A stretch of 26,144 nucleotides of DNA from an uncultured Pirellulales bacterium (GCA_964634515.1 CAZWME010000001.1:1-26144), one strand, 5' to 3'. Positions 2,319-23,621 are shown, counted from the stretch's first letter. Notes: generated from the sequence alone by a model not told the origin. Numbers and translations are program-made.

Positions 2319-2389
2319 TTTTTACTTCCTTACAAACAACATGAGGTCTGCTGTCCCTGGAACAGGGGAAATAATTGCAGGTACGTTCT

Positions 2390-3976
2390 TTATATCTTAA
2401 CTTTATCGCCGACACTTTCCTGCCATTTATTAATCATCGCCGTGAGCTTTCTGATAATATCCTCGTGCCGACCTGAATCGTACAGATTGACAGTCTCGCC
2501 CGGGTCTTTATTTAAATCGAACAACTGACATTTGTCTGTATCACTAATACATAACTTCCAGCCATCGGGTGAAACAGCAGCCCGCGTGTGCTCGTTTTCC
2601 AGACGACGCAGTTCTTCCTTCGCTGCAAGCAGCGTACCCCCTTTCTTGACCTTCATTGCCCCGCTGTTCGGATTCCATTCAATAAAGACATTATCTTGCC
2701 CTGCCCGACCTCCCTTGATAAGTGGAACCAGGCTTTTGCCCGGAAAACGCCCATCTGATCCACAACCCAGCAAGTCCATTAAAGTCGGAACCATGTCGAT
2801 TTGACTGACCCTGTCTTTGATAAGGCTGCCCTGCATCTGAGGTATCCGCATCAGCCAGGGCACTTTGACTGCTTCTTCATACATCACGCTCTTTTCCACC
2901 ATATGATGCGAGCCCATCATATCTCCGTGGTCGCTGGTATAGACAACAATTGTATCATCTGCCAGCCCCAGGTCATCCAGGGTTTTAAGAATCGCACCGA
3001 CACTAAGATCAACCTGCGTAACCAGGCCCCAGTAGCGACTAATAAGAGCCATTATGTCCTGTTCATCTTTACCGTATTTAGCCCGGCAGTATTCACGAAT
3101 GATACGATAACGGAGTGGCTCGTTTTCTTCCAGTAAATCAGGAAAGTTGGAAGGTAAATTTATTTCTTCCGGACTATGTTCATCGTCAAGCGGCCCAAAA
3201 AATGGCATATGCGGTTCGAGAAAATTGATGTACAGGATAAAAGGTTCTTGACGATGCCGGCGTAAGAAATCGCAGGCTTTTTTCTCCAAAAACTTCGGCT
3301 TACAATGTTCGAGAATCCTCCGCGCTGCAAACGAGCGGCTGAATGCGTTGTTACCGGAATCCGGTTTATAACCATTCTCGATGAGAAAATGATGATAATC
3401 GCTTCTCCTGTCACGGTCGCGCCCGTCGCTGTAATAACGCCTGTACCCGTCTTCAATGGAAACCCACTCTTCAAAGCCACGCTGGGCAAATATCTCGTCA
3501 CCAAGGTGCCATTTGCCCATATAAGCCGTGCGGTAGTCACTGTCGCCGAGCATCTCCGGAAGACATGGGATATCCGGTGGTAATGGTACGTTGTTTTTGA
3601 TACAGCCGCTTTGGTGCGGCCAGAGTCCGGTCATCACAGCCGAGCGGTTAGGCGTACAGACCGGTTGTGTTACATAAGCGTTCTCGAACACGACACTTTG
3701 GCCGGCCAGCTTATTCAGGTTGGGCACATGGATTTTGTTATTGCCATAAGCGGCCATTGTGTCCGCACGCTGCTCATCGGTCCAGATAAATAAGAGATTG
3801 GGTTTCTTTTGTTTTGGCCTGTGGACCTTTCGTGAGGTTGTGGTCCTTGGGACTCCTGACGGAGAACATGCGCCGGTAACGAGTGCGGCTGTCCCTAAAG
3901 TCGCAGCTTTCGCAAATTCTCGTCGGCTTAGTTTTGGCTTCATGGTACACTTCTTACTTGTGTTATCTTCAAACAT
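2390..3976 (-). CDS. Tat-exported sulfatase (Cys-type formylglycine-dependent)
   Basis: 528 aa. Twin-arginine SRREFAK plus a hydrophobic stretch, PNLLFIWTDEQR, the FGly motif CTPNRSAVMTG, YMGKWHLG, and YTSDHGDMMG. The start may instead be the ATG at 3943. Confidence 0.95.
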   Translation of the reverse strand: MFEDNTSKKCTMKPKLSRREFAKAATLGTAALVTGACSPSGVPRTTTSRKVHRPKQKKPNLLFIWTDEQRADTMAAYGNNKIHVPNLNKLAGQSVVFENAYVTQPVCTPNRSAVMTGLWPHQSGCIKNNVPLPPDIPCLPEMLGDSDYRTAYMGKWHLGDEIFAQRGFEEWVSIEDGYRRYYSDGRDRDRRSDYHHFLIENGYKPDSGNNAFSRSFAARRILEHCKPKFLEKKACDFLRRHRQEPFILYINFLEPHMPFFGPLDDEHSPEEINLPSNFPDLLEENEPLRYRIIREYCRAKYGKDEQDIMALISRYWGLVTQVDLSVGAILKTLDDLGLADDTIVVYTSDHGDMMGSHHMVEKSVMYEEAVKVPWLMRIPQMQGSLIKDRVSQIDMVPTLMDLLGCGSDGRFPGKSLVPLIKGGRAGQDNVFIEWNPNSGAMKVKKGGTLLAAKEELRRLENEHTRAAVSPDGWKLCISDTDKCQLFDLNKDPGETVNLYDSGRHEDIIRKLTAMINKWQESVGDKVKI

Positions 3977-4069
3977 TGCCTATCGCTGATAAAGGCTGTC
4001 CGGAATAGTTTACACTCTGAGGATCAATATAACAAGCTGTTTATACTGCTCCTTGAGTTCATATGCTTG

Positions 4070-4098
4070 TTGTCAACCGCTTACCGATTAGCTACAAT
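4070..4098 (+). promoter_or_regulatory. Putative sigma70 promoter for the URO-D-like/DUF5703 pair
   Basis: TTGTCA (4070-4075), a 17-nt spacer, then TACAAT (4093-4098), 57 nt upstream of the ATG at 4156. Confidence 0.5.
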
Positions 4099-4155
4099 TA
4101 ATTTAGTCTCTGCGATATATTGGTACTATGTTTAATATGATACGGAGTAAGCGTA

Positions 4156-5358
4156 ATGGGAATGTTCGATAATACAGCGGACAGCTCAAAGGCTCGCAAG
4201 AGGAAAGAAGGCACACTTGCCAAGCTCGACCGAATGAGGAAAACCCTGAACCATCAGGAGCCGGACAGAGTTCCTGTGAGCGATTTCTTCTGGGGCGGTT
4301 TTATAACACGCTGGCGAAAGGATCTGAATCTGCCCGATGATGCCAATCCTTATTATTATTACGACCTGGACTGGACTGTTACCGTGTCCAATATGGACCC
4401 GTTTATCCGGCCGTTTGAGACCCTGAAGGAAAACAACGAGGAAGTTATTCTGAAAACCGGTTTTGGTGCGATTTTGCGGAAGAAATTTTCTGACCCTATG
4501 CCCGAGTTTGTTGCTTTTGAAACGGACACCTTAGAAAAGCTGGAAGCTCTTGAGTTTGACGACCCTTACGACAAAAGAAGATATTTCCAGGCGGGTGACA
4601 ATCAAATCGCCGGTGTCGGGGACGGCTTCGAACGGAATTCGCCGCCCTGGATTGAAACCGTAAAATCTTTATGGCCGGACTTTCCTGTATTCGGCAGTAT
4701 TATAGAATGCAACGAATGCCTGACCCGCCTTATTGGGCCCGAGAATAATATGCTATGGATAGGAATGCATCCCGAGCGAATGGGTAAAGCTATCGACCGG
4801 ATTGGACGGTTCTATCTTGAATGTGCAAAGGCTGAAATCACAGCGGCCGAAAATCTTTTGGACGGCTTTGTCATCTGGGGAGACGTGGCCTATAGGAATG
4901 ATATGTTTTTCTCACCCGACTATTGGCGCCGATACTTCAAGCCATGGGTCAAGGCAATCGTAGATTACGCTCATGCAAAAGGCCTGATGGTCATCTATCA
5001 CGGTTGTGGCAATATTAACAAAATCCTCGATGACTATATCGAGATTGGTATCGACGCATTGAATCCGCTGGAGGCCAAGGCGGATTTGGATGCTGTGCAG
5101 TTGCGCCGCAAATACGGCCAGAGGTTAGGCATTTGCGGAAACAGCAATATAAAAATATGGGAAGCCGGCCGCAGGGAGCTTATACGAAAGGAAATTTTAA
5201 GAAAGCTCAATGCCGCAAAAGGCGGTGGCTATGTTTTCCAGTCAGACCATTCCGTAAGCAGCAATGTCTCGGGGCATACTTATGATTATATCGTAAACCT
5301 TGTTCGCCAATTCGGACAATATCCCCTTGATTTGGGCCGGTTCAATGAGGCAATTTGA
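4156..5358 (+). CDS. Uroporphyrinogen decarboxylase/MtaA-CmuA methyltransferase superfamily protein
   Basis: 400 aa. R-x-x-x-x-L-x-H-x-EPDRVP start, DGFVIWGDVAY, YHGCGN, GIDALNPLE, and GGGYVFQSDHSV. SD GGAG lies upstream. Confidence 0.85.
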   Translation: MGMFDNTADSSKARKRKEGTLAKLDRMRKTLNHQEPDRVPVSDFFWGGFITRWRKDLNLPDDANPYYYYDLDWTVTVSNMDPFIRPFETLKENNEEVILKTGFGAILRKKFSDPMPEFVAFETDTLEKLEALEFDDPYDKRRYFQAGDNQIAGVGDGFERNSPPWIETVKSLWPDFPVFGSIIECNECLTRLIGPENNMLWIGMHPERMGKAIDRIGRFYLECAKAEITAAENLLDGFVIWGDVAYRNDMFFSPDYWRRYFKPWVKAIVDYAHAKGLMVIYHGCGNINKILDDYIEIGIDALNPLEAKADLDAVQLRRKYGQRLGICGNSNIKIWEAGRRELIRKEILRKLNAAKGGGYVFQSDHSVSSNVSGHTYDYIVNLVRQFGQYPLDLGRFNEAI

Positions 5359-5376
5359 TAATTCCTGGAGGAATAA

Positions 5377-7650
5377 ATGCTGACACTTAAATCTCAGAAA
5401 ACATTTTGGTTAATATTATGTGTGGTTGTGTTTTGTTCCTGCACTGGTTTTGGGAAAGAAAAGGCAGCTCAAAATTTTAATGATATCGAAACTTACAACG
5501 TCCTCTGGAGTAGTCCGAGCAAGGACAGTTCCGGTTCGATGCCGATAGGCAATGGAGACATCGGCTTAAACCTCTGGGTGGAGGAAAACGGAGACCTCCT
5601 GTTCTATATAAGCAAGACCGACGCCTGGAGTGATAACTGCCGGCTGCTCAAACTTTCTCGGGTACGCCTGAAACTTTCACCTAATCCGTTCGGCAAAGCC
5701 GGCCCTTTCTGCCAGACGTTGAAGCTGCGCCAGGGTGAGATTGAAATCATCGCCGGCCAATTGGAAAAACAGGTTGCATTACGCATTTGGGTGGATGCCA
5801 ATCGACCTGTAATTTATGTCGAAGCTGAAAGCAAGAAGTCCTTTAACATTCAATGTAATCTTGAGGTTTGGCGTAACGAGACTCGCCGGCTCAAAGGCGA
5901 TGAAGCCAATAGTGCCCGTGCCCTGACAGGTAACGATGATTATCCTATCATCGTTTATCCGGATGTGGTTCTGCCGGCCCAGAACAATCGCATCGTTTGG
6001 TACCATCGCAACGAGAAGTCCTGTTATCCGGTCACGTTAAAGAACCAGCATCTTGACCGGTTGCTGGCAAAGTATCGTGACCCGCTTCTAAACCGCACAT
6101 TTGGCGGATGCATGAAAGGCGATGGATTACAGGCCATTGATAAGAATATTCTCAAATCAGCCAAACCGGGCAAGCATTTTGTGGTTTCGATTTACCCTCT
6201 GACGGCGCAGACAAAATCCATTGACGACTGGCTGAGTTTGCTGGAAAAACAAATAGCTGCGATTGATGCAATAGATCTGAAGACCGCACGTGCTGCACAC
6301 AGGCAGTGGTGGGAGAGGTTCTGGAAGCGGAGCTGGATTTTTATAGACGGCCTAAAAGATGCCGAAGTAGTGACTCGTGGCTATAACCTCCAGCGATGGA
6401 TAAACGCCTGCGGTGGCCGTGGTACTTGTCCCATCAAGTTCAACGGTTCGATTTTTACTGTTGATGCCAAGGTGGGCAAGGAGCATCTTGACGGTGATTA
6501 TAGACGATGGGGTGGAATGTACTGGTGGCAGAATACCAGGCTGCCTTATTGGTCGATGCTGGCAGCGGGGGATTTCGATCTCATCCAGCCGCTGTTTACG
6601 ATGTACATAAAGGCGCTCGGTCTGTGCCGTGACAAAACAAGGATTTATTATAACCATGATGGTGCTTTTTTTCCGGAAACGATGCACTTTTGGGGCACGA
6701 ACGGCAATTGCGATTTTGGCTGGGGCCATAAAGGGCCTGAAACCGTTAACCGATACATACGCCGCGAATGGCAGGGCGGGATCGAACTAACAGCCATGAT
6801 GCTTGATTATTACGCCATTACACAGGACAGAAAGTTTCTGCGTGATATGCTTTTGCCCCTGGCCGATGAGACCATTACTTTTTTCGACAGGCACTGGCCT
6901 CGCGATGAGCAGGGTAAAATTCGCTTCGAGCCTTCCCAGTCACTGGAGACATGGTGGCAGTGCGTCAATCCCCTGCCGGAGGTTGCCGGACTTAAGTTCG
7001 TACTCAGTGCGTTATTGGAGCTGCCCGAAGAACTGACAACCAACTCACAGCGAAAGTCCTGGAAGAAAATCCTGACCGACCTGCCTGCTGTTCCAATGAA
7101 ACAAGACAAGGGCAAACAAATTTTACTCCCGGCTGAAAAATACAGCGAAAAGCGAAACCAGGAAAATCCCGAATTATACGCCATTTTTCCATACCGGCTT
7201 TTTGGAATTGAAAAACCAAACCTGGAAATTGGAATTGAGACCTATCAGCGACGAGTGCATAAGGGTACCGGAGGCTGGTATCAGACACCGGTCCAGGCCG
7301 CGTATCTTGGCTTAACGCAGGACGCCTCGAAATTCGTTACTCAGAATTTCTCAACTAAGCACAAGGGCAGCCGTTTCCCCGCATTCTGGGGGCCCAATTA
7401 CGACTGGATTCCCGACCAGGACCACGGCGCCGTAACGATGACAGCTCTGCAGCGAATGCTTATACAGACAGACGGCAGGAAGATATACCTGCTGCCCGCC
7501 TGGCCCAATAACTGGGACGTCGATTTTAAACTTCATGCACCTTTCAAGACAATCGTTCAGGGCACTGTCCGAAATGGACGAATTGAGAAACTCTACGTCA
7601 CACCTGAAAGTCGGCGTAAAGATATAAAAATTTTGAGTGGCAAATCCTAA
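5377..7650 (+). CDS. Secreted DUF5703-domain, GH95-like glycoside hydrolase (alpha/alpha barrel)
   Basis: 757 aa. Signal peptide, SMPIGNGDIGLNLWVE, WWQNTRLPYW, SQSLETWW, ENPELYAIFPY, WIPDQDHG and LLPAWP-x-x-WDVDFKLHAP. Perfect SD GGAGG, 18 nt after the upstream stop. Confidence 0.8.
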   Translation: MLTLKSQKTFWLILCVVVFCSCTGFGKEKAAQNFNDIETYNVLWSSPSKDSSGSMPIGNGDIGLNLWVEENGDLLFYISKTDAWSDNCRLLKLSRVRLKLSPNPFGKAGPFCQTLKLRQGEIEIIAGQLEKQVALRIWVDANRPVIYVEAESKKSFNIQCNLEVWRNETRRLKGDEANSARALTGNDDYPIIVYPDVVLPAQNNRIVWYHRNEKSCYPVTLKNQHLDRLLAKYRDPLLNRTFGGCMKGDGLQAIDKNILKSAKPGKHFVVSIYPLTAQTKSIDDWLSLLEKQIAAIDAIDLKTARAAHRQWWERFWKRSWIFIDGLKDAEVVTRGYNLQRWINACGGRGTCPIKFNGSIFTVDAKVGKEHLDGDYRRWGGMYWWQNTRLPYWSMLAAGDFDLIQPLFTMYIKALGLCRDKTRIYYNHDGAFFPETMHFWGTNGNCDFGWGHKGPETVNRYIRREWQGGIELTAMMLDYYAITQDRKFLRDMLLPLADETITFFDRHWPRDEQGKIRFEPSQSLETWWQCVNPLPEVAGLKFVLSALLELPEELTTNSQRKSWKKILTDLPAVPMKQDKGKQILLPAEKYSEKRNQENPELYAIFPYRLFGIEKPNLEIGIETYQRRVHKGTGGWYQTPVQAAYLGLTQDASKFVTQNFSTKHKGSRFPAFWGPNYDWIPDQDHGAVTMTALQRMLIQTDGRKIYLLPAWPNNWDVDFKLHAPFKTIVQGTVRNGRIEKLYVTPESRRKDIKILSGKS

Positions 7651-7779
7651 GCCACTGGTAGAAAGTTTACAACGTAGGTTTCAGAATAGTGTTTGAAACC
7701 GACAACCAGGTTCAACTGTTCGTCAGCAACAAGTGAGCAAGCTCGGGATTCTAAATAAGACAAAAGCTCGCAAGAATTA

Positions 7780-8472
7780 CTAACCGTCGAGGGCCATTCG
7801 GCAGAAAAGGTTAAGTGCCTGAAGAACACGCTCTCGTTTCTCGGAGATTTGAAGGAAAGGCGCCCGCGAAAGCTCGACCTGTACCCAGGGCAGCTCGGAT
7901 GAATGCGAACGGATAATATAGCCGCCTTTGAACGGATGATTGATCGATATTTCACTCTCGAATGATGCCTCCAGGCATTGAACCAGTTTTTCAAACCACT
8001 CCTGTGGGCATGTCCCATGTGCATTACTCAGACATATTTTGGGCCGCTCACAATCCGAATCTGTAGCAGAAGGAGGGCCGACGGCGGCCATAGTATGACA
8101 ATCGACGCCGAATTTGACATCGGCCGCAGATTCTAAAAGCCGCTGATGATAAGGGCGGTAGTAACGCTCCAGAAGAATCTCGACCGCATCTTCGGGGACG
8201 GGCTGACGATATACACTGGCGTTGTAGCAGGTATGGGTTTTAACGATACCGTCCCGGCCTCTATCATCTTCGGCCCGATTCATGTCCACTATTGTGCGGG
8301 CAACATCCGTTGTGATATGCGCTGTCACCTCGGATTTCAGCTCGTATATCTCTGCTGACCCCTCGTCACTGTCGGCAAGTATCTGCTCCGGTGTCAGCAC
8401 ACAATATTCCTGCACTTCCTGTGGCACGGTCAGACCGGCATGAGGGACCGAAATAATTAGTGGCAGTTTCAT
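7780..8472 (-). CDS. N-formylglutamate amidohydrolase family protein (Zn-carboxypeptidase-like fold)
   Basis: 230 aa. PLIISVPHAG, DSD, ARTIVDMNR, YYRPYH-x-x-L, VDCHTM, INHPFKGGYI, and WVQVELSR. The start overlaps the GGT stop (ATGA, 8469-8472). Confidence 0.9.
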   Translation of the reverse strand: MKLPLIISVPHAGLTVPQEVQEYCVLTPEQILADSDEGSAEIYELKSEVTAHITTDVARTIVDMNRAEDDRGRDGIVKTHTCYNASVYRQPVPEDAVEILLERYYRPYHQRLLESAADVKFGVDCHTMAAVGPPSATDSDCERPKICLSNAHGTCPQEWFEKLVQCLEASFESEISINHPFKGGYIIRSHSSELPWVQVELSRAPFLQISEKRERVLQALNLFCRMALDG

Positions 8473-10082
8473 TTGGTTGGGCCTCTGGCCTCTCCGTCAC
8501 GACGCGGATCCGCCACACCTACAAACTTATTGTCCTCGTGTATCACTAACTGGACGCAGCCGAGATAAAACGAATAGGGCTCTCTTACATCGAGACTAAA
8601 TCCATGACTTTCCAGTGTCGTTGGAATATCACTACGCATCCGGGATGCTTCCAATGATACCGTCCCTTCAGCAGAACAATGCAGGCGAGGCGCGTCCACG
8701 GATTCGAACGGCAACTGTTTGCCAAGCCGAAGGAAGACCTGTGCGATAGACGAAACGATACGCTGACTCCCCGGAGATCCAATCGCCATCCAGGGTTTTC
8801 GGTCTTTGAAGATAATTGTCGGCGCGACACTGGCCCAGGGCACGGCATTCGGTCGCAAATAGTAAGGATGTTTCATGTCCTTCTCTTCAAACGCCGTCAT
8901 ATAGTTATTATATAGAAAGCCGAGTTCGGGCGTTGCCACACACGAGCCGTACACGCGCTCAATAGACTGTGTTAAAGCTGCCACGTTTCCAAACCTGTCC
9001 ATAACAGACAAATGTGTAGTATCCCCACCTGTCTTTATGTTTTTCATCGACCAGCGGGCGATATCTCTGGCATAATCCGTACTTAGCATTCGCTTCTGCG
9101 GGACCTGTGCATACGAGTTTGGATCGAAAGGCCTGTCTTTGCGGTCGCGATTGGCCTGTCGTATGGCCTGGGCAAGCGTCAATGCTCCTTCTGGCGTGTC
9201 CACATTTCGATACTTCTTCGGAATATGACTTATAATATTAAGCAGCTCTATTAATGTCCTGCCTGCCCCCGGCGGAGGAAATGTTACAATCCTGAATTCT
9301 CCAAACTGACTGGAAACTGGTTTTCTTTCGATAGGCCACGGTATTTGGGCCAGATCCTCTTTTGTAATGAGCCCTTCGTTCCGGGCCATATCTTCATGTA
9401 TCAACCTTCCGATTTGCCCATGATAGAAATCAGTAACTCTCCTGCGCCCGAGTCTTCTCAGTGTAGCGGCCAACGCAGGCTGAGAAAACTTTTCCCCGAC
9501 CTTAAAGGTTTTCTTGCCATCCTTCAGGAATAGCTGGGCCGCCGGCCCTTGCCGTAAATGCTTTCTTACTCTTCGAGTCAGCTTACGTTGAAGCTCGCTG
9601 ATACGATATCCATTCTCGGCAAGTTGAATGGCAGGCTGCAGGATTTCAGCAATCGGGATGGTTCCAAAGTGTTCCAGCGCATAGGCCAGAACCGCCGGTG
9701 TGCTGGGTACTGTTGTGGCTTGGAATCCTCGTAAGCGCTGCTCAATGCTCATGTCCTGCACCGAAGTTCTGTTAGGAGCCCTGGACGAACCGTCCAATGC
9801 AAGTGTTCGGCGTGAACGGGCCAGATGGATTAACGCCATCGTCTGACCGCCCAGTCCGGAGGCTGCCGGTTCACACACACCCAGAGCGAAAGCAGCGGCT
9901 ACGGCCGCATCGATGGCATTACCTCCCGACTCAAGAATTTGGACCGCCGCTCCGGTTGCAAGATAATGCTGTGTACTTGCCATGCCGTATTCTGATACGG
10001 ATACACGCTGGGGCTGGTAAACTTTGGCAGGGCTAAAGTCTCGTACATCTGTGTCGTCCTGTTGCTTCGGCGTAGAAGCCAT
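8469..10082 (-). CDS. ggt: Gamma-glutamyltransferase-family Ntn hydrolase, cytoplasmic, with an atypical substrate pocket
   Basis: 537 aa. GGNAIDAAVAAAFALGVCEP-x-x-SGLGG, TVPSTPAV, FPPPGAG, autocleavage site GGD|T355-THLSVMD, and GSPGS-x-RI. No signal peptide. The start lies 6 nt after the upstream stop. Confidence 0.92.
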   Translation of the reverse strand: MASTPKQQDDTDVRDFSPAKVYQPQRVSVSEYGMASTQHYLATGAAVQILESGGNAIDAAVAAAFALGVCEPAASGLGGQTMALIHLARSRRTLALDGSSRAPNRTSVQDMSIEQRLRGFQATTVPSTPAVLAYALEHFGTIPIAEILQPAIQLAENGYRISELQRKLTRRVRKHLRQGPAAQLFLKDGKKTFKVGEKFSQPALAATLRRLGRRRVTDFYHGQIGRLIHEDMARNEGLITKEDLAQIPWPIERKPVSSQFGEFRIVTFPPPGAGRTLIELLNIISHIPKKYRNVDTPEGALTLAQAIRQANRDRKDRPFDPNSYAQVPQKRMLSTDYARDIARWSMKNIKTGGDTTHLSVMDRFGNVAALTQSIERVYGSCVATPELGFLYNNYMTAFEEKDMKHPYYLRPNAVPWASVAPTIIFKDRKPWMAIGSPGSQRIVSSIAQVFLRLGKQLPFESVDAPRLHCSAEGTVSLEASRMRSDIPTTLESHGFSLDVREPYSFYLGCVQLVIHEDNKFVGVADPRRDGEARGPTK

Positions 10083-10088
10083 GATATA

Positions 10089-12242
10089 TTATCCCTCTGC
10101 TTGTTTAGCTAAAAATTCGGCGACCAACAGTGTTCTTTGAAGAAGGCTGATCCTCTCCACCGCCTCGTTTGGTGTGTAGGCGTCCCTTGTAACGGGTCCC
10201 AGGCCGCAAACAACTGGCGTCGATGAAGGCACGAGTCCCGCAACCGAAGGCCACAGGGAAGACTCTTTTCCGAACGGTATTTCCCAGTTGGATGCAACCT
10301 CTGCCAGATCGGCAACGAGACGCTTGTTTGCTGTACGGTTTTTCATTGCCGGCCGGTCCGAGACAATCTCAAGTTGACAGCGAAAACCATTCTCGACGAG
10401 CATATCTCTTATTGACGCCTCCGCATCATCCGCCGTCTCTTTGTCGCCGTAACTTAGCAGGATAGTGGCCTCGACCTTATGCGGAAGAAGCATGGGGAAC
10501 GTAGTCGGGTGGATATCTGAGACAGCAATGGAAAGGCGATTCTGCTTGGAAGAGAGTTTTGAGATGTCCTCCAGTTTGTTGCATACCCAGCGCAGTATTT
10601 CAGGTTTTTTTCTGGCTTTGCCGAGTCGGGCGGGTACGTCTTCTGCAACAAGCTGATATTTCCGCCAACCACGCCGCTCTATTACAACCTTGTTCTTAGG
10701 ATTACCCGGCCGCAGAACCAGAACTCGCCTGGCTCTTTCCGCGGCGGCTCTGATTATACTACTGCTTTCTATGTTATCTCTGCCTTCATCGGCAAAGTAA
10801 AGAACTCCAACGGGCATCGAATTCAACTTTCGCAGACTTTTTAACACCTTGAGAACGAATTCCAACATCACCAGGGGAGCACGGGAAAGACCTATACCTT
10901 CTCCATACAGCCACTCCGGAGTTCGGCGGAACACCTGTATGGGTATCTCAGGTGTAAGCGCCACGTCTAAATGCCCGACAAAAAGAGTCCCGTCTGTCAG
11001 GCCGGACTTTGTCTGCCAGGTCCAGACGGTCTTGTTGTCCGTTAATTCCTCCACGGCTTCAAGGCCTATTTCCTCGAGTGTTTGGCTGAGTTTCATCGTC
11101 GCCTGTTGAATCCCGAACGGATCAGAGGTCCTGCTATGCAGGTTTGTCCAAATCCGCAGCCGCCTCTCGATTTGGTCCCGCCGCTGAGTTAAGAATGACA
11201 TAACTAACTGGCCCGTATCGGTCGACTTTTTTGTTATCCTGACCGGCTTCGGAGTACCGAAATAACGGGTACTTGTCACCTCAACGAGACGATTTACCAG
11301 CGCCGGAAAATCAAGACCTACATGTTGAGCGCCGATCGTATATGAACCATGTTCACCCATGCTCGGCAGGCTGTTCACTTCGAGCAGTTGGAGATTTTCC
11401 TCGGCATCTAAACGCATGTCCACACGGGCGCAGTCAAAGCAGCCAAGGACCTCGAAGGCCCTGCGGGCAAGTTTTTTGGCTTCTTCTACCGTCTCTTCGC
11501 TCACTCTTGCGGGACACTCGAATCCGATCTCGCGTCCGGATTGGTGGACCTTGTCTTGATATGTGTAAATAGCCGGCCCGTCTCCCGGGAACAATAATTC
11601 CACCGGCGGGAAAGCCTCCGATGGATTGTTCCCTATTAAGCCGACATTTATCTCGCGACCCTCGATATATCGCTCCGCAAGTACAGGCTGTTTGAAAGCC
11701 TCAAAAATCGTCCGTGCAGCTTCCCTTAATTCACTCTCATTATGGACTACTGTCACGCCAAAGGACACGGATTCATTTTTAGGTTTTACAACCATGGGAA
11801 ACGATAGATCCGTCGGCAATTCATCTTCCCATGAGTTTAGTACAACGAACTCCGGCGTCGGCAGCTCGTGCTGACGAAAGATTATTTTGGCAACTACCTT
11901 GTCGAGGGCAAGGCCGTGTGCAAGGGGGCCTGAGCCCACATAGGGAATCCCGACCATCTCGAGAATGCTCGGAACATGTGCGTATCTCGCCTGGCCCTGA
12001 ATCCCGTAAGAGACATTGAAAACCAGACCCGGGAGTTCTCCCTTCAGGACCTTAGGCATGAAATCCTCCAGCCGCTCGATTAGGTCCTTGTCCCCCTCAA
12101 CCTCTTTGACCTGATGTTTTCCAGCCTTGAGTGCATCCGAAATGCGCTTTATTGTCTTGTGCCCGATTCGTTCCCGGTTCGGAACTCCGAAAAGGTTTAT
12201 GACATTTTGAGAATCACGATTATAAACTACTGCTATTTTCAT
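10089..12242 (-). CDS. Fusion protein: Ddl-like ATP-grasp ligase (aa ~1-330) plus degenerate M20/M25/M40 peptidase domain (aa ~345-717)
   Basis: 717 aa. ATP-grasp motifs GIPYVGSG, LALDKVVAK, VVKPKNESVSFGV, ERYIEGREINVG, ARVDMR and LLE288-V-N290-SLP. M20 motifs FVGH424LD, LYGEG, ADEG and VVCGLGP...TPNE. Confidence 0.9.
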   Translation of the reverse strand: MKIAVVYNRDSQNVINLFGVPNRERIGHKTIKRISDALKAGKHQVKEVEGDKDLIERLEDFMPKVLKGELPGLVFNVSYGIQGQARYAHVPSILEMVGIPYVGSGPLAHGLALDKVVAKIIFRQHELPTPEFVVLNSWEDELPTDLSFPMVVKPKNESVSFGVTVVHNESELREAARTIFEAFKQPVLAERYIEGREINVGLIGNNPSEAFPPVELLFPGDGPAIYTYQDKVHQSGREIGFECPARVSEETVEEAKKLARRAFEVLGCFDCARVDMRLDAEENLQLLEVNSLPSMGEHGSYTIGAQHVGLDFPALVNRLVEVTSTRYFGTPKPVRITKKSTDTGQLVMSFLTQRRDQIERRLRIWTNLHSRTSDPFGIQQATMKLSQTLEEIGLEAVEELTDNKTVWTWQTKSGLTDGTLFVGHLDVALTPEIPIQVFRRTPEWLYGEGIGLSRAPLVMLEFVLKVLKSLRKLNSMPVGVLYFADEGRDNIESSSIIRAAAERARRVLVLRPGNPKNKVVIERRGWRKYQLVAEDVPARLGKARKKPEILRWVCNKLEDISKLSSKQNRLSIAVSDIHPTTFPMLLPHKVEATILLSYGDKETADDAEASIRDMLVENGFRCQLEIVSDRPAMKNRTANKRLVADLAEVASNWEIPFGKESSLWPSVAGLVPSSTPVVCGLGPVTRDAYTPNEAVERISLLQRTLLVAEFLAKQAEG

Positions 12243-12453
12243 AATAATGCTGCATTATTCGACGCCATAGAAGACGCATAGAATATACCTTTCACACTGA
12301 CCACAATAGACTCTTCCTCGGCAATACTGGGGTGTAGATTCCAATAATTCCGTAAAAAAAGTGCCTGAAAGCGGATATTAGCAGCACCTGCTTGCTGATT
12401 CGAACAAATTCCCGCTAATATCAGATACAAATGCTCATATATGGATTTTTTCA

Positions 12454-12483
12454 TTGACAGCAAAGCAGTTAATTTGGTATAGA
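12454..12483 (+). promoter_or_regulatory. Putative sigma70 promoter (extended -10) for the LamG gene leader
   Basis: Consensus TTGACA (12454-12459), an 18-nt spacer ending in TGn, then TATAGA (12478-12483). Confidence 0.5.
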
Positions 12484-12744
12484 TAATAGTGGTGAAGTTT
12501 GTATCCACGAAGTCGGGAATCTGAGGATTCTCGTTTTCGTATAGGAGTGATTTTTTACAATTTACCGAATAGAGGAGGATGTTTCTATGCCGGGGGTAAA
12601 GTTTGTTGTGACAATGGCTTTGTGTCCCGGAGTTTAGCTTTCACATTTGAGCTAAAAAAAATCATCCTATAAAAACAACGAGCATTTTGGTGTGTGGCCA
12701 AAGCATAATTGGTAATTATTGTAACTTATTTAAGGAGGACTATT

Positions 12745-14916
12745 ATGTGTAGAAAATTAATTTGTCTGGTTTCTTTTGTTTTCGTGCTGGGCCTCGTTCT
12801 AACAAGTGTAGCCGGCGCTGCCGACCCCGACCTTATTGGTTGGTGGCCGTTGAATGAAGGTTCCGGGGATGTTGCTATTGATTTGTCCGCCTCAGGCAAT
12901 GATGGGACCATCGCCAACATTGACGGTGGCGGCCTGGGCGATAACGGTTCGGCATGGGTGGACGACCCGGAGCGTGGCATAGTCCTGAGCTTCAATGGAA
13001 TCGATGGTTCCGGCGCAGTTGTAGGCACTGACCTGATTCTTCCGGCTATGACCATGGACAACGATTTTACATGGGCATTCTGGTGTTTCCAGCACCCCGA
13101 TCAAGCCACTGATAATGATACGATATTGGGCAATCGCTACGGTGGTACCACAGCCCCGCTTCAGTTCATAAAGTTCACGCCGACAAGGTTTGAGTTCTAC
13201 AACGACGATGGTAGTTACACAGAGGGCATTAATTACGATCCAATCCCGCTCGGCGAATGGGTGCATCACATTATATCCAAGGATGGAGCCGACTTTACTT
13301 ATTATCGCAATGGTGAAGAGGCGGGAACCAACACGATTTCGAAAACCATCGATGAAAATCCCTTTGGATTTGGTGGCGACTTCACAAATAACAATGAGAA
13401 GTGGCAAGGCTATCTGAGCGACATACGCCTCTACACAAAAGCGCTATCGGCCACTGAGGTACTCGGTGTTATGCAAGGGGCAGGTGGGTTATGGCCTTAT
13501 GCATCCGCGCCAACGCCGGCTGACGGCGCCCTTCATGCTGATACATGGGTAAATGTTTCATGGAGGCCGGGTGGCTATGCGGTCTCGCACGATGTGTATT
13601 TAGGTGACAATTTTGACGATGTGGACAGCGGTGCCGAGGGAACGTTCCTCGGCAACCAGACAGACACATTTATTGTTGCCGGCTTCCCTGGATTTACCTA
13701 TCCGGATGGTCTTGTTCCCGGCACGACATACTATTGGCGGATTGACGAAGTCAATGAATCCGAACCGAACAGTCCCTGGAAAGGCGATGTCTGGAGCTTT
13801 AGTATTCCTCCCAAGACAGCATACTTTCCCGACCCGGCTGATGGCGCCGAGTCTGTAGGTGTCAATGTGCAACTTAGCTGGACGGCAGGTTTCGGTGCAA
13901 AATTGCACACCCCGTACTTCGGTGAGACTTTTGAAGAAGTGGACACTGCAGCAGGTGGCATGGCTCAAGGAACTACGACCTACGATCCCGGTCCGCTTAA
14001 AATGGCCAAAACTTACTACTGGCGAGTCGATGAGTTTGATATCATCAACACCTTCAAAGGCAATGTCTGGAGCTTTACTACCGAGGGCGCCGTTGGAAGT
14101 CCGAGTCCGGCTAATGGTGCTGTCGATATAACGCAAACACCCGTTCTAACCTGGACACCCGGATTTGGTGCTTCACATGAAGTCTATTTTGGCGCCGATG
14201 AAGCTTCTCTGGAATTAAAAGGCAGCGGCAACCTTGGCTCAGAGAGCTATGAGTCCGGACAACTTGAGTGGAATACTACTTACTACTGGCGTGTAGATGA
14301 GGCCAATAACGCCAACGCCGACAGCCCGTGGACAGGTCCACTCTGGAGCTTTACTACGGCCAACTTCCTTATCATAGACGATATGGAGAGCTACAACGAC
14401 ATTAATGAAGGTGAACCCGGAAGCAACAGGATTTATAACGCCTGGATAGACGGATACGACGACCCGACAAACGGTTCTCAGTCTGGTCATTTGGATGTTC
14501 CATTTTACGAAGAGACTATCGTTCACGGCGGCGATAAGTCGTTGCCGCTTTACTATGACAACCCCTTATCCGGCGGAAAATCCGAGGCAACTTTAACATT
14601 GACTGCAAATAACGACTGGACCGTTAATGGTGTAACTTCCCTGACAATTTGGTTCAGAGGCGCTTCTTCTAATACATCGAATACCGGCGAGACGATGTAT
14701 GTCACTCTCAATGGCAGCGCCAAAGTCAATAATGATAATCCGGACGCGGCAACGATTAATAATTGGACACAGTGGAACATCAGCCTGACACGCTTTGCCG
14801 ACCAGGGTGTCAACCTTGCAAATGTAAATTCGATTACTCTTGGCCTTAGCTCGGTTACAGGCGGTACAGGTATCATGTACTTCGATGATATTCGGCTGTA
14901 TCCACCTGCAGAGTAA
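12745..14916 (+). CDS. Secreted LamG (concanavalin-A-like) domain protein with three ~90-100 aa repeat modules and a C-terminal carbohydrate-binding-like domain
   Basis: The start is reassigned from TTG 12709 to ATG 12745, which follows SD AGGAGG at 12733-12738. Signal peptide MCRKLICLVSFVFVLGLVLTSVAGA. LamG hallmarks LIGWWPLNEG, WVHH...YYRNG and GYLSDIRLYTKALS. C-terminal DDMESYND...YFDDIRLY. Confidence 0.88.
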   Translation: MCRKLICLVSFVFVLGLVLTSVAGAADPDLIGWWPLNEGSGDVAIDLSASGNDGTIANIDGGGLGDNGSAWVDDPERGIVLSFNGIDGSGAVVGTDLILPAMTMDNDFTWAFWCFQHPDQATDNDTILGNRYGGTTAPLQFIKFTPTRFEFYNDDGSYTEGINYDPIPLGEWVHHIISKDGADFTYYRNGEEAGTNTISKTIDENPFGFGGDFTNNNEKWQGYLSDIRLYTKALSATEVLGVMQGAGGLWPYASAPTPADGALHADTWVNVSWRPGGYAVSHDVYLGDNFDDVDSGAEGTFLGNQTDTFIVAGFPGFTYPDGLVPGTTYYWRIDEVNESEPNSPWKGDVWSFSIPPKTAYFPDPADGAESVGVNVQLSWTAGFGAKLHTPYFGETFEEVDTAAGGMAQGTTTYDPGPLKMAKTYYWRVDEFDIINTFKGNVWSFTTEGAVGSPSPANGAVDITQTPVLTWTPGFGASHEVYFGADEASLELKGSGNLGSESYESGQLEWNTTYYWRVDEANNANADSPWTGPLWSFTTANFLIIDDMESYNDINEGEPGSNRIYNAWIDGYDDPTNGSQSGHLDVPFYEETIVHGGDKSLPLYYDNPLSGGKSEATLTLTANNDWTVNGVTSLTIWFRGASSNTSNTGETMYVTLNGSAKVNNDNPDAATINNWTQWNISLTRFADQGVNLANVNSITLGLSSVTGGTGIMYFDDIRLYPPAE
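13498..14358 (+). repeat. Three tandem intragenic protein repeat modules
   Basis: Each module reads P-x-P-A-[DN]-G-A...L/V-x-W...YYWR-[IV]-DE...WSF. Approximate spans are 13498-13806, 13816-14082 and 14088-14358. DNA identity persists, e.g. CTGGAGCTTTACTAC at 14067 and 14343. Confidence 0.85.
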
Positions 14917-14964
14917 ACAGTTATTTAGATGTTAAGTAAAAGTATGTAGTAGATGTATAAATTC

Positions 14965-14997
14965 GGGGCCTATACTAACTCGGTATAGGCCCCTTTT
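14965..14997 (+). terminator. Rho-independent terminator after the LamG gene (may also act on the convergent DUF1593 transcript)
   Basis: Perfect 11-bp stem GGGGCCTATAC / GTATAGGCCCC with a 7-nt loop, followed by TTTTAGTT. It lies between convergent stops at 14916 and 15037. Confidence 0.85.
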
Positions 14998-15036
14998 AGT
15001 TCGACATCTGTGAGGTTTCAATATTTACCTAACCTC

Positions 15037-16485
15037 TTATGGTTTTATATTGACGATGATTCTGCGATAACTGTAAAGGCTCGGCTTGCCATTATCTTTT
15101 ACCTCCAAAAGGATATGGACAGCACACGGCGTCTTGACTTTTGGCGCAGTAAAATGAGCATGCTGAGACGAGCCATTTTTGATATCGATTGAACCGTTAT
15201 AATTTCCCGCTTCTTTATACACAAACCATCGACAGGAAAATTTGTCACCATCGGGATCATAGCTGCCATCGGCGCTGAGATTGACTGTCTCTTCGGCTTT
15301 TACAGTCAGATGTACTACAGCCTTGCTCTTGTCATTGTCAAAAGCAACTATGGGGTTGTGATTAGCTTTCTCATACGTCTTGGCCACACACCAGTCCATC
15401 CGGGCCGCGAAATCGTGCTGGTAAGCCTCGCGCCAGCGCCAGATAGTTGCCTGGGCCGAGGTATATTGTAAACCGTTTTCAGCAATTACCGTGTCCTGGC
15501 AGCCTTCGGCATTGGTCCAGATAGGACGGGTCTCGGCGTATGTTTGATTAAGGACGTAGCGTCCACCCCATCCTCCGTAGGACGGACTGACGCGGCTGCC
15601 AAGCCCGTTGCTGATTAGATTAAGGAACGATGGTGTGTCACCTTCCATGATGTATTCCAGTTTGGGATATAGTGCTCCGAGCGGACCGTGGTCTTTAATA
15701 ATGTTTTTTTCAAGCCACGGATTATCGACCAGTTCAAACTTATGCATTGGCCCGTTTTGGTATCGGCGGTCTCCGGAAATACCAGTCCATGTTGCTTTGT
15801 AGTATTCGTGATAGTCCACACTGCTGGGAGTCACGATGTAAAAAAGCTTCGGGAACGTCAGCCGCATCCAGCGTCCGGAGTTGTCCTGATCGGAGATAGT
15901 ATAGACCCGCAGCTTGGAAACGAAAGCGTCCAGCTCTTCCTTGCTGCGGTTATACTTCACATCCCAAAGCGCCTGTGCCAAACAGTTAGCTCCGCCCCAG
16001 ACGCTGATCCAGACGGGGCGGTCATCCGGTCTATCGACAACCTCGATAATATGCCGGGAACCTTGTGAACTTTTACCCGGGCCAACTCCCTTCATACCAA
16101 ACTCGGGCCGACCTTCTTTCGTGATATTGAGCAAGTGTTCCATCGTCGGATAACCGGATGCGTGTTTTAAAAGATTGCTGCGAACCTGACCAAATGCTTC
16201 GATGCGTTCACGAATATTTTCCGGCCGGACCTTGTCCCTCAACCATACCGATGTGGTCGCAATCAGACCTTCGACATCGAATTCGTTGGAATATACCAAA
16301 AAACGAACCATGGATTCCTCGTCATCCGGTTCGTTGGTAATGTCCGTCAGAACAATAACGCGGGGCCTGTCAGGCTTTTCAAACACTGCCTTCTGTCCGG
16401 CAAAGCTTGTTTGAGAAGCTATAAGAACAGATAGCAGTGCGAATAAACTCTTTCTAAAAATGCAATTGATATATTTCATCACCAC
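15037..16485 (-). CDS. Secreted DUF1593 protein (Sde182-like nucleoside-hydrolase-like domain plus C-terminal Ig/PKD-like domain)
   Basis: 482 aa. GTG start with SD AGGAG, signal peptide, RVIVLTDITNEPDDEESMVRFLVYSNEFDVEGLIATTS, WISVWGGANCLAQAL, MEGDTPSFL, GGWGGRY, FAARMDW and SYDPDGD. Confidence 0.88.
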   Translation of the reverse strand: MVMKYINCIFRKSLFALLSVLIASQTSFAGQKAVFEKPDRPRVIVLTDITNEPDDEESMVRFLVYSNEFDVEGLIATTSVWLRDKVRPENIRERIEAFGQVRSNLLKHASGYPTMEHLLNITKEGRPEFGMKGVGPGKSSQGSRHIIEVVDRPDDRPVWISVWGGANCLAQALWDVKYNRSKEELDAFVSKLRVYTISDQDNSGRWMRLTFPKLFYIVTPSSVDYHEYYKATWTGISGDRRYQNGPMHKFELVDNPWLEKNIIKDHGPLGALYPKLEYIMEGDTPSFLNLISNGLGSRVSPSYGGWGGRYVLNQTYAETRPIWTNAEGCQDTVIAENGLQYTSAQATIWRWREAYQHDFAARMDWCVAKTYEKANHNPIVAFDNDKSKAVVHLTVKAEETVNLSADGSYDPDGDKFSCRWFVYKEAGNYNGSIDIKNGSSQHAHFTAPKVKTPCAVHILLEVKDNGKPSLYSYRRIIVNIKP

Positions 16486-16545: not shown

Positions 16546-17634
16546 CTACAACTGTCTTTTTACGGCCTCGGCATGGATCAGCTCGAACACGGCCTTGATG
16601 AATTCACTCTCAAGGCCGAGCTGCTTGGCTTTAGCCATGTGGTCCTTCAAAAGCTGCTCCCATCTGTTAATCTGAAGAACGGGGATATTGTGCTCCTGTT
16701 TGAGTTTACCTATTTCATCAACCCACTTCATCCTTCCCGCAAGGTCCTGTATGATTTGTGAGTCTGAATGGCTGATCTCTGTACGCAGGCGGGCTATCTT
16801 TCTTTTTACCTGTTCATCTGTTATAGCCGTATTTCGAGCCCGAAGCTTTTTGAGCAGCTTCATCAACGCGTTGGGTGTAATTTGCTGTTTTGAATCACTC
16901 AGCGCCCGGTCCGGGTCGTTGTGAGTTTCTATCATAAGACCTTTGATGCCTAAATCCAATGCAGTCTGAGAGATAGGTTCTATGAATTTGCGCCGGCCCC
17001 CTATATGGCTCGGATCACAAATAAGTGGCAGGTTCGGCAGCAGCCTTTTCAGTTCGATAGGAATCTGCCAGTTTGGATTGTTGCGGTATGCCATACGAAC
17101 GTAAGTTGAGAAACCTCTGTGTATGGCCGCAAGCTTTTTTATCCCTGCGTTATACAGCCTTTCGATGGCACCCAGCCAAAGACCTAATTCGGCATTGATA
17201 GGATTCTTCACGAGTATCGGCACATCGACTCCTTTGAGAGAGTTGGCTATCTCCTGTACAAGGAACGGATTCACCGTCGTTCTTGCTCCAATCCAGAGAA
17301 TATCAACGTCATTCTCCAGACACAGTTCAACGTGCTGTGTATTCGCCACCTCGGTTGTAGTAAGAAGGGAGGTCTCAGCCTTGACCATCTTGAGCCATTC
17401 CAGGCCGACTTCGCCGACCCCTTCAAAAGTGTTGGGCCGCGTACGTGGTTTCCAGATTCCCGCACGAAAAACCTTGACATGGGGAGATTTTACTAATTTA
17501 CGGGCTATCATCTTTACTTGCTTTTCAGACTCCGCACTGCAGGGTCCCGCAATCAACCAGGGAATCCTCTTAAATTTCAACCAGGTTGAGATATCTGATA
17601 TATTATGATTCAGCTTTTTCAGGTTCTCAGTCAT
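16546..17634 (-). CDS. Bifunctional DAHP synthase (type I-beta, N-terminal) / chorismate mutase (AroQ, C-terminal)
   Basis: 362 aa. IAGPCSAES, RAGIWKPRTRP-x-x-FEG, WIGART, VKNP, HRGF, CDPSH, MIETH and SD-x-x-QQ. The C-terminal LR-x-x-I-x-x-x-D...R...IG-x-x-K...RW pattern is AroQ-like. Confidence 0.92.
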   Translation of the reverse strand: MTENLKKLNHNISDISTWLKFKRIPWLIAGPCSAESEKQVKMIARKLVKSPHVKVFRAGIWKPRTRPNTFEGVGEVGLEWLKMVKAETSLLTTTEVANTQHVELCLENDVDILWIGARTTVNPFLVQEIANSLKGVDVPILVKNPINAELGLWLGAIERLYNAGIKKLAAIHRGFSTYVRMAYRNNPNWQIPIELKRLLPNLPLICDPSHIGGRRKFIEPISQTALDLGIKGLMIETHNDPDRALSDSKQQITPNALMKLLKKLRARNTAITDEQVKRKIARLRTEISHSDSQIIQDLAGRMKWVDEIGKLKQEHNIPVLQINRWEQLLKDHMAKAKQLGLESEFIKAVFELIHAEAVKRQL

Positions 17635-22557: not shown

Positions 22558-22559
22558 TT

Positions 22560-23414: not shown

Positions 23415-23442
23415 AGTAGATAAATCCCGTTAAAAAATTCCG

Positions 23443-23619: not shown

Positions 23620-23621
23620 AT

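Follow-up and report, generated by a model that had tools for sequence, protein, structure and literature searches.

In a 26,144-nucleotide stretch of DNA from an uncultured Pirellulales bacterium (GCA_964634515.1 CAZWME010000001.1:1-26144), referred to here as the window, three open reading frames (ORFs) lie side by side in the same orientation on the minus strand (7780-12242). The first encodes LIG, a fusion of an ATP-grasp domain resembling D-alanine-D-alanine ligase (Ddl) to a C-terminal domain resembling M20 peptidases. The second encodes a member of the gamma-glutamyltranspeptidase (GGT) family of N-terminal nucleophile (Ntn) hydrolases and the third a member of the N-formylglutamate amidohydrolase (FGase) family, hereafter the GGT-like and FGase-like proteins (Table 1). 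Built from known superfamilies, the trio constitutes an uncharacterised metabolic operon.

A preliminary description of the locus had reported three co-oriented genes separated by a 6-nucleotide gap and a 4-nucleotide ATGA overlap, bounded by one convergent and one divergent gene and encoding proteins without signal peptides, and all of this was borne out by the ORF listing, by direct reading of the junctions and by inspection of the translations. The LIG/GGT-like junction reads GGATAA tatatc ATG, and at the GGT-like/FGase-like junction (AAATGA) the start codon of the downstream gene overlaps the stop codon of the upstream one; the two junctions suggest translational coupling of the three genes. 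A convergent DUF5703/GH95-like gene lies on one side of the unit and a divergent LamG-domain gene on the other. By eye, an N-terminal hydrophobic, signal-like segment is seen in none of the three translations, and the N-terminus of the GGT-like protein (MASTPKQQDDTDVRD...) is hydrophilic.

Conservation of the operon as a unit

To survey relatives of the operon, GTDB was scanned with one genome per species. At least 231 of 185,579 species genomes contain a fusion relative of LIG; 80 loci were retained, each examined over 10 kb on either side and scored for gene content by tblastn with the three window proteins. The close LIG homologues are labelled Sedimentisphaerales or Phycisphaerae, labels by which the window would belong to a planctomycete of this group, and full-length homologues with 55-95% identity occur in many phyla. 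The labels of the 80 loci come from at least 15 phyla, namely Planctomycetota (including Scalindua), Zixiibacteriota, Verrucomicrobiota, Thermodesulfobacteriota, Ignavibacteria, Latescibacterota, Acidobacteriota, Nitrospirota, Nitrospinota, Gemmatimonadota, Cloacimonadota, Elusimicrobiota, Sumerlaeota, Chloroflexota, Pseudomonadota and others.

Gene order is conserved far beyond chance. LIG is followed by an adjacent, co-oriented GGT-like gene (orthologues of 56-94% identity) in 63 of the 71 loci with enough downstream sequence, and the complete order LIG>GGT>FGase is kept in 54 of 67 informative loci; the exceptions are five loci with LIG and GGT, six with LIG only, one inverted arrangement and one with a duplicated GGT. 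The matrices of pairwise distances run in parallel for the three proteins (r = 0.78, 0.79 and 0.60; Mantel p = 0.001), which fits inheritance and transfer of the operon as a unit. An exhaustive search of cluster representatives recovered full-length fusions down to 28% identity, and in a distant clade, whose loci come from metagenomes, many again show LIG>GGT>FGase, with identities to the window proteins of 31-35% (LIG), 42-49% (GGT) and 35-42% (FGase). Since the same order recurs at this distance, the triad is old and selected as a unit. In three loci (L094, L096 and L097) the GGT-like and FGase-like genes are parted by a methyl-accepting chemotaxis gene (4HB_MCP plus MCPsignal, ~490 aa).

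The family extends into archaea, which are among the members of the distant clade. A 90%-identity cluster of 38 members (P0380) carries the labels Methanophagales (ANME-1, anaerobic methanotrophic archaea), Methanosarcinales and Halobacteriota, and in the archaeal locus L081 a LIG 81% identical is followed by a GGT-like gene; these members imply transfer between bacteria and archaea in sediments. To our knowledge, ANME-1 and Methanosarcinales archaea have no peptidoglycan. The preliminary description had proposed conserved synteny as a check, and the homologues proved strongly syntenic, including clades at ~33% identity and members from both domains of life; because the triad order recurs across clades, the question is settled in favour of a functional module.

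Active-site states of the three proteins

The N-terminal half of LIG matches Dala_Dala_lig_C in Pfam (6e-39), and its residues 1-330 are closest to Ddl (PF07478) in both sequence (PDB matches, E 3e-31) and structure comparison by Foldseek. The likeness covers the fold and the residues for ATP, Mg2+ and acyl phosphate, of which K115, K153, R273, D275, E288 and N290 (in E. coli DdlB, K97, K144, R255, D257, E270 and N272) are invariant in 50 sequences of the family, E190 being invariant as well. Given this invariance, the ATP-grasp half is expected to be an active ligase. The residues for the first D-alanine are another matter. In an alignment compared by eye with DdlB, whose triad is E15/S150/Y216, S150 corresponds to V159 (in at least 90% of sequences) and Y216 to a variable position (V, T, I or K), a possible E24 being the sole triad residue kept. 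With the NCBIfam Ddl models (TIGR01205, NF002378 and the equivalog models), LIG fell below the cut-off in all 25 listed, scoring 184.7 bits against 243 and 158 bits against 245.65.

Unlike Ddl, LIG also carries a motif of its own (SYGIQGQARY.H), a C-terminal extension of 380 aa and archaeal family members. The motif, as (S/A)YGIQG..RY.H, is invariant in the family and retained even at 26-37% identity. No dcw, mur or murein-recycling genes recur among ~270 flanking proteins. A housekeeping Ddl role was rejected on the sub-threshold scores, the lost D-Ala triad, the lack of cell-wall neighbours and the members in ANME-1/Methanosarcinales metagenome-assembled genomes (MAGs). ATP-grasp relatives with other architectures also exist (P0411, P0413, P0425, P0409, P0428 and P0403), with an N-terminal 7TM_transglut domain, a tandem double ATP-grasp or, once, a radical-SAM fusion; those fused to 7TM_transglut show 43-44% identity.

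The C-terminal half of LIG is a remodelled M20 domain. The Pfam match to Peptidase_M20 is weak (20.9 bits against a cut-off of 24.6), and a profile of residues 336-717 finds carboxypeptidase G2 (CPG2) as the only significant solved relative in PDB (E 8e-6). The AlphaFold2 (AF2) model, in which the predicted local distance difference test (pLDDT) score is mostly above 85 over this domain, gives the same CPG2 structure as top Foldseek match (1cg2, E 4e-21, target TM 0.73), with the poly(aspartate) hydrolase PahZ2 also among the M20 matches. The domain has in common with M20 glutamate carboxypeptidases and PahZ2 the two-lobed fold, the HxD motif (H424, D426) and the general-base glutamate (E486), and differs from them at the metal positions, where the bridging Asp is replaced by L452, the metal-binding Glu by G487 and the C-terminal His by Y689. 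Across distant clades the metal positions vary, invariance being confined to D426, G447, G525 and E693. The domain is otherwise highly conserved, with many invariant arginines. With its metal ligands lost, the M20 half is predicted to be a long-standing, non-catalytic pseudo-peptidase derived from a glutamate/aspartate carboxypeptidase, and would serve in binding or assembly rather than in hydrolysis. The 'M20' label of the preliminary description therefore needs correction: the metal ligands of this half are lost in every clade, so it is not a second hydrolase.

The GGT-like protein matches G_glu_transpept (PF01019) at 6e-111 (372 bits). With lid-less bacterial GGTs, CapD and GGT-like amidases of this family it has in common the Ntn fold, the TTH nucleophile motif, the GSPG oxyanion region and a lid loop of roughly Bacillus length, ~9 residues shorter than that of E. 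coli GGT. The catalytic nucleophile and autoprocessing site is predicted to be T355, in the motif GD-TTHLSVMD. This residue is invariant in the orthologues compared and, in the alignment, stands opposite E. coli T391 and the first residue of crystallised small subunits. Unlike canonical GGT, the protein has no signal peptide, scores below the TIGR00066 cut-off (330.4 against 357.85 bits) and has an altered donor pocket. Residue alignment to E. coli and B. licheniformis GGT revealed that E. coli R114 is replaced by S99, N411 by E375 (Glu in Bacillus too), Q430 by Y394, D433 by A397 and S462 by A417, S463 being kept as S418. Both the pocket and the loop features recur across 51 orthologues as well as the distant clade, together with a subfamily signature (DGSSRAP, (L/I)TQSIE, LGFLYNNY, PW(A/T/S)S and GSPGS.RI), and the protein belongs to a distinct cytoplasmic GGT subfamily.

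The pocket changes argue against a gamma-glutamyl donor with a free alpha-amino group. E. coli GGT accepts glutaryl donors once the D433 contact is lost. Since the D433 equivalent is lost here (A397), the GGT-like protein likely handles an acyl group with a glutaryl backbone in which the amine is missing, acylated or shifted in position, as in a beta-glutamyl group.

The FGase-like protein matches PF05013 (2e-39, 136 bits), and its AF2 model (pLDDT 85) retrieves FGase structures first in Foldseek (2q7s and 2odf, TM ~0.72), with MpaA, Csd4, aspartoacylase, a phage poly-gamma-glutamate hydrolase and CCP5 as remote matches. Family, fold and the HxxxxxxxE...DxNR...H...E motifs are common to this protein, HutG and gamma-glutamyl-glycine amidohydrolase. 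H11, D63/N65/R66 and E200 never vary, and E19 and H126 are kept in at least 90% of sequences, the distant clade included; by analogy these are predicted metal and catalytic ligands, and with the motif residues so conserved the protein is expected to be an active zinc amidase. It differs from HutG in being shorter (230 aa), in scoring far below the cut-off of the HutG model TIGR02017 (70.3 against 278.75 bits) and in its gene context, with no hut genes in the window or related loci and no ethanolamine-utilisation genes around it. From its sequence it appears intact but is not HutG. Nor is the FGase family restricted to N-formylglutamate: the PF05013 member SCO1615 of S. coelicolor and its orthologue in C. 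salexigens are listed as gamma-glutamyl-glycine amidohydrolases (PMC9397018, Table 2).

The claim that each protein deviates from its textbook namesake therefore stands for all three. Databases currently name LIG 'D-alanine-D-alanine ligase' or 'M20 metallo-hydrolase', the GGT-like protein 'gamma-glutamyltranspeptidase/glutathione hydrolase' and the FGase-like protein 'formiminoglutamase' or 'N-formylglutamate amidohydrolase'. Whatever their function, metabolic reconstructions from MAGs should not count these proteins as Ddl, glutathione-degrading GGT or HutG.

Neighbouring genes and the proposed chemistry

No conserved fourth gene emerged: in ORF clustering over the 80 loci no other family occurred in more than 11 loci, and among 136 upstream and 133 downstream neighbours classified by Pfam none of the families had more than five members. 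Near the operon, CorA was found in 11 loci, MgtE in six and MscS-type mechanosensitive channels in nine. At least one of the three lies within 10 kb in 15 of the 80 loci, spread over ~9 phylum labels, where about one such locus per 80 would be expected by chance if a genome holds about three Mg2+-transporter genes, a rough estimate and not a test. Same-strand strings include MgtE>LIG>GGT>FGase>CorA (L026) and LIG>GGT>FGase>DAC>MgtE (L033), DAC being a DacZ-like diadenylate cyclase also present in L048; in the distant clade they include LIG>GGT>FGase>MscS>MgtE_N-CBS>MgtE (L100 and L110) and LIG>MgtE (L090). A Na+/H+ antiporter gene accompanies the operon in L012, and polyamine genes (pyruvoyl arginine decarboxylase, agmatinase and deoxyhypusine-synthase-like) adjoin it in L005, L012, L024 and L034. 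A unit of DUF432, an MscS-type channel and CorA lies close to the operon in several phyla (L005, L037, L044, L058 and L059) and may be an ion-homeostasis module in its own right.

KamA-family radical-SAM aminomutase genes stand beside the ligase in L045, L046 and its near-duplicate L117, L071, L082 and L108; in L045 the gene directly follows the FGase-like gene on the same strand. The enzymes of L071 and L108 score higher as glutamate 2,3-aminomutase (564 and 574 bits) than as lysine 2,3-aminomutase (428 and 426 bits), with the cut-off of 650 not reached. Glutamate 2,3-aminomutase is also the best model, at lower scores, for those of L082 and (weakly) L045, and lysine 2,3-aminomutase is the best for that of L046 (454 against 426). 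KamA-family genes near the ligase are accompanied by active M20 hydrolases resembling glutamate carboxypeptidase, as in the order aminomutase>M20>LIG of L108 and in L082 (1358-10200), where a single strand carries GGT>aminomutase>M20>LIG>LIG with two paralogous fusion ligases.

A sister clade shows a different partner. In 13 loci without GGT and FGase (L083, L084, L086, L087, L089-L092, L095, L113-L115 and L123), whose ligases are 51-55% identical to P0380, a class-I glutamine amidotransferase gene (190 aa) lies directly upstream of the ligase gene; its best models are of the GMP-synthase subunit A (GuaA-N), TrpG and CarA types, and its sequence shows the Cys-His-Glu motifs. Four of these sister-clade loci have EamA transporter and pyridine-nucleotide-disulphide oxidoreductase genes downstream. 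In L010, LIG is paired with glutamine synthetase and a GNAT. Pairs of extra, stand-alone Ddl-like ATP-grasp genes occur by the operon in L046 (15286-19036; also in L117), together with the KamA-family aminomutase and a GNAT, and in L060 (~2000-7760), together with an active M20 dipeptidase-like gene and an archaeal-type phosphoenolpyruvate carboxylase gene.

Putting these observations together, we infer, with confidence that stands about midway between doubt and assurance, that the operon encodes a cytoplasmic module for making and breaking an amide, dipeptide or short oligomer of glutamate and/or beta-glutamate, by which a pool of solute or counter-ion would be tuned. The ATP-grasp half of LIG would convert a carboxylate to an acyl phosphate and join it to an amine, either an amino acid or ammonia, to give the small amide, dipeptide or short oligomer, while the dead CPG2-like domain would bind the acidic substrate or assemble the partner enzymes. 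Through its N-terminal Thr355, the GGT-like protein would cleave or transfer a glutaryl-backbone acyl group lacking a free alpha-amine, or supply the amine, and the FGase-like zinc amidase would cleave an N-acyl bond on a C-terminal glutamate-like residue. Between them, the enzymes would fix how much of an anionic or zwitterionic solute is present, as one element of osmotic and Mg2+/cation homeostasis.

A glutamate-type acid is suggested as substrate by the ancestry of the individual domains (CPG2-like, GGT and FGase) and by the replacement of partners with ones of equivalent chemistry: by analogy, the glutamine amidotransferase that replaces GGT acts on a gamma-carboxamide, and the active M20 enzyme that replaces FGase cuts the N-acyl linkage to a C-terminal acidic residue. 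It is suggested further by the repeated recruitment of enzymes most like glutamate 2,3-aminomutase and by the recurrence of magnesium, mechanosensitive-channel and cyclic di-AMP (c-di-AMP) genes as neighbours. As counter-ion osmolytes, glutamate and beta-glutamate are classical cases. Osmolyte roles are documented for beta-glutamate, beta-glutamine and N-epsilon-acetyl-beta-lysine, the latter two being zwitterions (PMC1224877); eam and ablA are among the osmoprotectant-related genes associated with Na+ riboswitches, and c-di-AMP is an osmotic signal (PMC9337991). The preliminary description had already proposed a self-contained cytoplasmic module for glutamate-like amides, with a compatible solute among its possible products. 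The module now gains from the active-site and partner-replacement evidence and the solute role from the MgtE, CorA, MscS, DAC, Na+/H+ antiporter and KamA-family neighbours, which leave the product and the physiological role themselves as reasoned proposals.

Several observations weigh against this proposal. The ion-transport and aminomutase neighbours are a minority, with Mg2+/MscS genes in ~19% of loci and KamA-family genes in ~5%; most loci, the window included, have no informative fourth gene, and the only related neighbours in the window are polyamine genes ~9 kb away. If both 'hydrolases' broke down what the co-expressed ligase makes, the enzymes would run a futile cycle in the absence of regulation, so at least one of the two may work at a step before the ligase. 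For the glutamine amidotransferase of the sister clade, donation of ammonia is a better fit than recycling, and by analogy the closed active site of Ddl-type enzymes argues against long polymers. The AF2 model of the N-terminal domain of LIG is poor (pLDDT below 50 at residues 11-27, 52-56, 61-75 and 77-113), so that its pocket is not analysable, and the taxonomic labels of some MAGs may be wrong.

Among other explanations, the GGT-like Ntn amidase could free ammonia or an amine from glutamine or a related amide for the ATP-grasp domain to use in turning a carboxylate into an amide, such as beta-glutamate into beta-glutamine or an N-acyl-glutamate into the corresponding amide, with the pseudo-M20 domain docking the amidase and the FGase-like protein trimming or deblocking the substrate or product. 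The class-I glutamine amidotransferase directly upstream of the ligase in the 13 sister-clade loci and the pairing of LIG with glutamine synthetase and a GNAT in L010 speak for such an amidotransferase, as do the precedent of carbamoyl-phosphate synthetase, in which an ATP-grasp enzyme works with a class-I amidotransferase, and the glutaminase activity reported in some GGT-family enzymes. It offers no clear role for FGase, and we consider it unlikely, if worth keeping in view. The GGT-like protein may be more than the recycling hydrolase that the preliminary description saw in it, a donor of ammonia or amine being a live alternative, since a glutamine amidotransferase replaces GGT in the sister clade. 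Alternatively, the ligase might build a cytoplasmic oligo- or poly-(gamma/beta)-glutamate as a store or cation buffer, analogous to cyanophycin or to RimK/RimB, which the GGT-like enzyme with its shortened lid and the carboxypeptidase-like FGase would depolymerise, cutting internally or at the chain ends. Bacillus GGT and CapD act on poly-gamma-glutamate, and the GGT-like lid loop is about as short as that of Bacillus GGT; poly-gamma-glutamate hydrolase, MpaA and CCP5 are among the remote fold matches of the FGase-like protein, the arginine-rich pseudo-M20 domain resembles CPG2 and PahZ2, and Mg2+ transporter and polyamine genes occur as neighbours. Close ATP-grasp relatives are also fused to 7TM_transglut as in Rlo, which has an osmotic-stress phenotype (PMC11957051). 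Against a polymer, the ATP-grasp domain, being Ddl-like and having an omega-loop region of ordinary length, suggests small substrates, no primer, exporter or polymer-binding protein is conserved alongside the operon, and we know of no cytoplasmic poly-glutamate in the host taxa; we regard this reading as improbable.

Two further readings, peptidoglycan-peptide recycling and a glutathione-like cycle, are poorly supported. In peptidoglycan recycling the ligase would make D-Ala-D-X while the GGT-like and FGase-like proteins cut the gamma-D-Glu-meso-diaminopimelate and L-Ala-D-Glu bonds of stem peptides. Ddl is indeed the closest solved relative of the ligase, the alpha-amine of the stem-peptide D-Glu is acylated, which fits the loss of the D433-type contact, and MpaA and Csd4 are among the remote matches of the FGase-like fold; yet this role is made highly improbable by the scores below every Ddl cut-off, the D-Ala1 triad that is not conserved, the ~270 neighbours without recurring murein-recycling or dcw genes, the members in ANME-1/Methanophagales and Methanosarcinales archaea, and a scan that matched only 231 of 185,579 species genomes, if as a lower bound. 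A glutathione-like thiol or gamma-glutamyl cycle, in which the ligase would resemble the Ddl-like ATP-grasp domain carried by GshF, the GGT-like protein would degrade the tripeptide and the metallo-amidase would be the dipeptidase, has the formal appeal that ligase, GGT and dipeptidase are the elements of that cycle. We think it scarcely credible, as no gamma-glutamylcysteine ligase is conserved nearby, the GGT-like pocket is changed where it would receive the free alpha-amino group of a gamma-glutamyl moiety, and glutathione is uncommon in strict anaerobes and archaea, which are most of the hosts.

The glutamate-amide module that we favour has counterparts in logic. In RimK/RimB, RloABC, cyanophycin synthetase with cyanophycinase and isoaspartyl dipeptidase, and glutathionylspermidine synthetase/amidase, an ATP-grasp ligase is likewise encoded with hydrolases for the matching bond, and by synteny statistics and co-evolution the operon shows just this linkage of an ATP-grasp ligase with matching-bond amidohydrolases that marks an amidoligase plus hydrolase module. 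Here, however, a GGT-type Ntn hydrolase and an FGase take the place of the retropepsin, S51 or CHAP enzymes of those modules, the ligase is Ddl-like rather than RimK-like and carries a pseudo-M20 domain, and all components are cytoplasmic. With known osmolyte pathways it has in common the theme of osmoadaptation (PMC1224877, PMC9337991) and, as neighbours of the ligase family, KamA-family aminomutases, GNATs and glutamine synthetase, whereas none of those pathways uses an ATP-grasp ligase or a GGT-family or FGase-family enzyme, and an aminomutase is adjacent in few loci and not in the window. Full-text literature searches found no description of a pseudo-M20 Ddl-like ligase with a remodelled cytoplasmic GGT and an FGase amidase, an earlier in-silico mention being possible.

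In its boldest form, the proposal is of a new, widely transferred pathway of anoxic-sediment bacteria and ANME/Methanosarcinales archaea, in which a new amide, dipeptide or oligomer of glutamate or beta-glutamate is made and turned over, serving as a Mg2+-coupled cytoplasmic counter-ion or osmolyte, and which brings a new ligase architecture (ATP-grasp plus pseudo-carboxypeptidase) and a new GGT specificity class; taken whole, this is conceivable and rather doubtful. If true, it would be a new small-molecule pathway common to many little-understood lineages of sediments (Phycisphaerae, Zixibacteria, Latescibacteria, Desulfobacterota, anammox bacteria and ANME archaea), would give first functions to three large, misannotated protein subfamilies and a worked example of a pseudo-peptidase recruited into a ligase, and could tie glutamate/beta-glutamate chemistry to Mg2+ and osmotic homeostasis.

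Upstream region and surroundings in the window

The AT-rich region upstream of LIG is common to the operon and the divergent LamG gene, and its DNA is 82-89% conserved in close relatives. An 89-aa ORF within it (12239-12508, minus strand), whose stop codon overlaps the LIG ATG, was rejected as a gene because stops and frameshifts interrupt it in relatives whose LIG is 90-94% identical; given these breaks, the region is probably a non-coding leader or promoter. A search of the window for riboswitches and leader RNAs returned no Rfam family at the gathering threshold, the interval 12100-12800 at E<=1 gave only a spurious miRNA match, and 29 related loci (~295 kb) yielded only tRNA. Promoter and terminator consensus scans gave counts near shuffled expectation and were not used.

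Table 1. Features of the operon, its upstream region and the surrounding window.
Feature	Position	Strand	Remarks
LIG (ATP-grasp + pseudo-M20 fusion)	10089-12242	-	717 aa; first gene of the operon; ORF listing, Pfam, NCBIfam
ATP-grasp (Ddl-like) domain, LIG aa 1-330	11253-12242	-	PDB Ddl matches, invariant columns
Pseudo-M20 (carboxypeptidase-G2-like) domain, LIG aa ~340-717	10092-11225	-	Profile against PDB, Foldseek, motif columns
GGT-family Ntn hydrolase	8469-10082	-	537 aa; Pfam, residue alignment to E. coli/B. licheniformis GGT
Thr355 codon of GGT-like gene, predicted autoprocessing site/catalytic nucleophile	9018-9020	-	Alignment with E. coli T391
FGase-family (PF05013) zinc amidohydrolase-like protein	7780-8472	-	230 aa; Pfam, AF2 model, Foldseek
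AT-rich upstream region, probable operon promoter/leader	12243-12708	-	466 nucleotides; common to operon and divergent LamG gene
DUF5703/GH95-like protein	5377-7650	+	Convergent operon flank
LamG/Ig-repeat secreted protein	12709-14916	+	TTG start; divergent operon flank
Fe-alcohol dehydrogenase	1134-2318		Polysaccharide-degrader style surroundings
Sulfatase	2390-3976		Polysaccharide-degrader style surroundings
URO-D-like protein	4156-5358		Polysaccharide-degrader style surroundings
Sde182-like nucleoside-hydrolase-like protein	15037-16485		Polysaccharide-degrader style surroundings
DAHP synthase-chorismate mutase fusion	16546-17634	-	
703-aa protein	17817-19928	-	Directly downstream of SSF symporter gene
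SSF sodium:solute symporter	19870-21300	-	
Deoxyhypusine-synthase-like gene, presumably homospermidine-synthase-type	21538-22557	-	Polyamine trio
Agmatinase	22560-23414	-	Polyamine trio
Pyruvoyl-dependent arginine decarboxylase	23622-24173	-	Polyamine trio

The rest of the window surrounds the operon in the style of a polysaccharide degrader (1134-7650 and 12709-16485). Farther off on the minus strand lie a 3-deoxy-D-arabino-heptulosonate 7-phosphate (DAHP) synthase of the type I family fused to a C-terminal chorismate mutase type II domain and, ~9 kb from the operon, the polyamine biosynthesis trio (21538-24173). Between them, the SSF symporter gene and the gene for the 703-aa protein, which has no Pfam match, overlap at their ends, and the pair is kept in close relatives (clusters c18 and c19 in L004 and L077).

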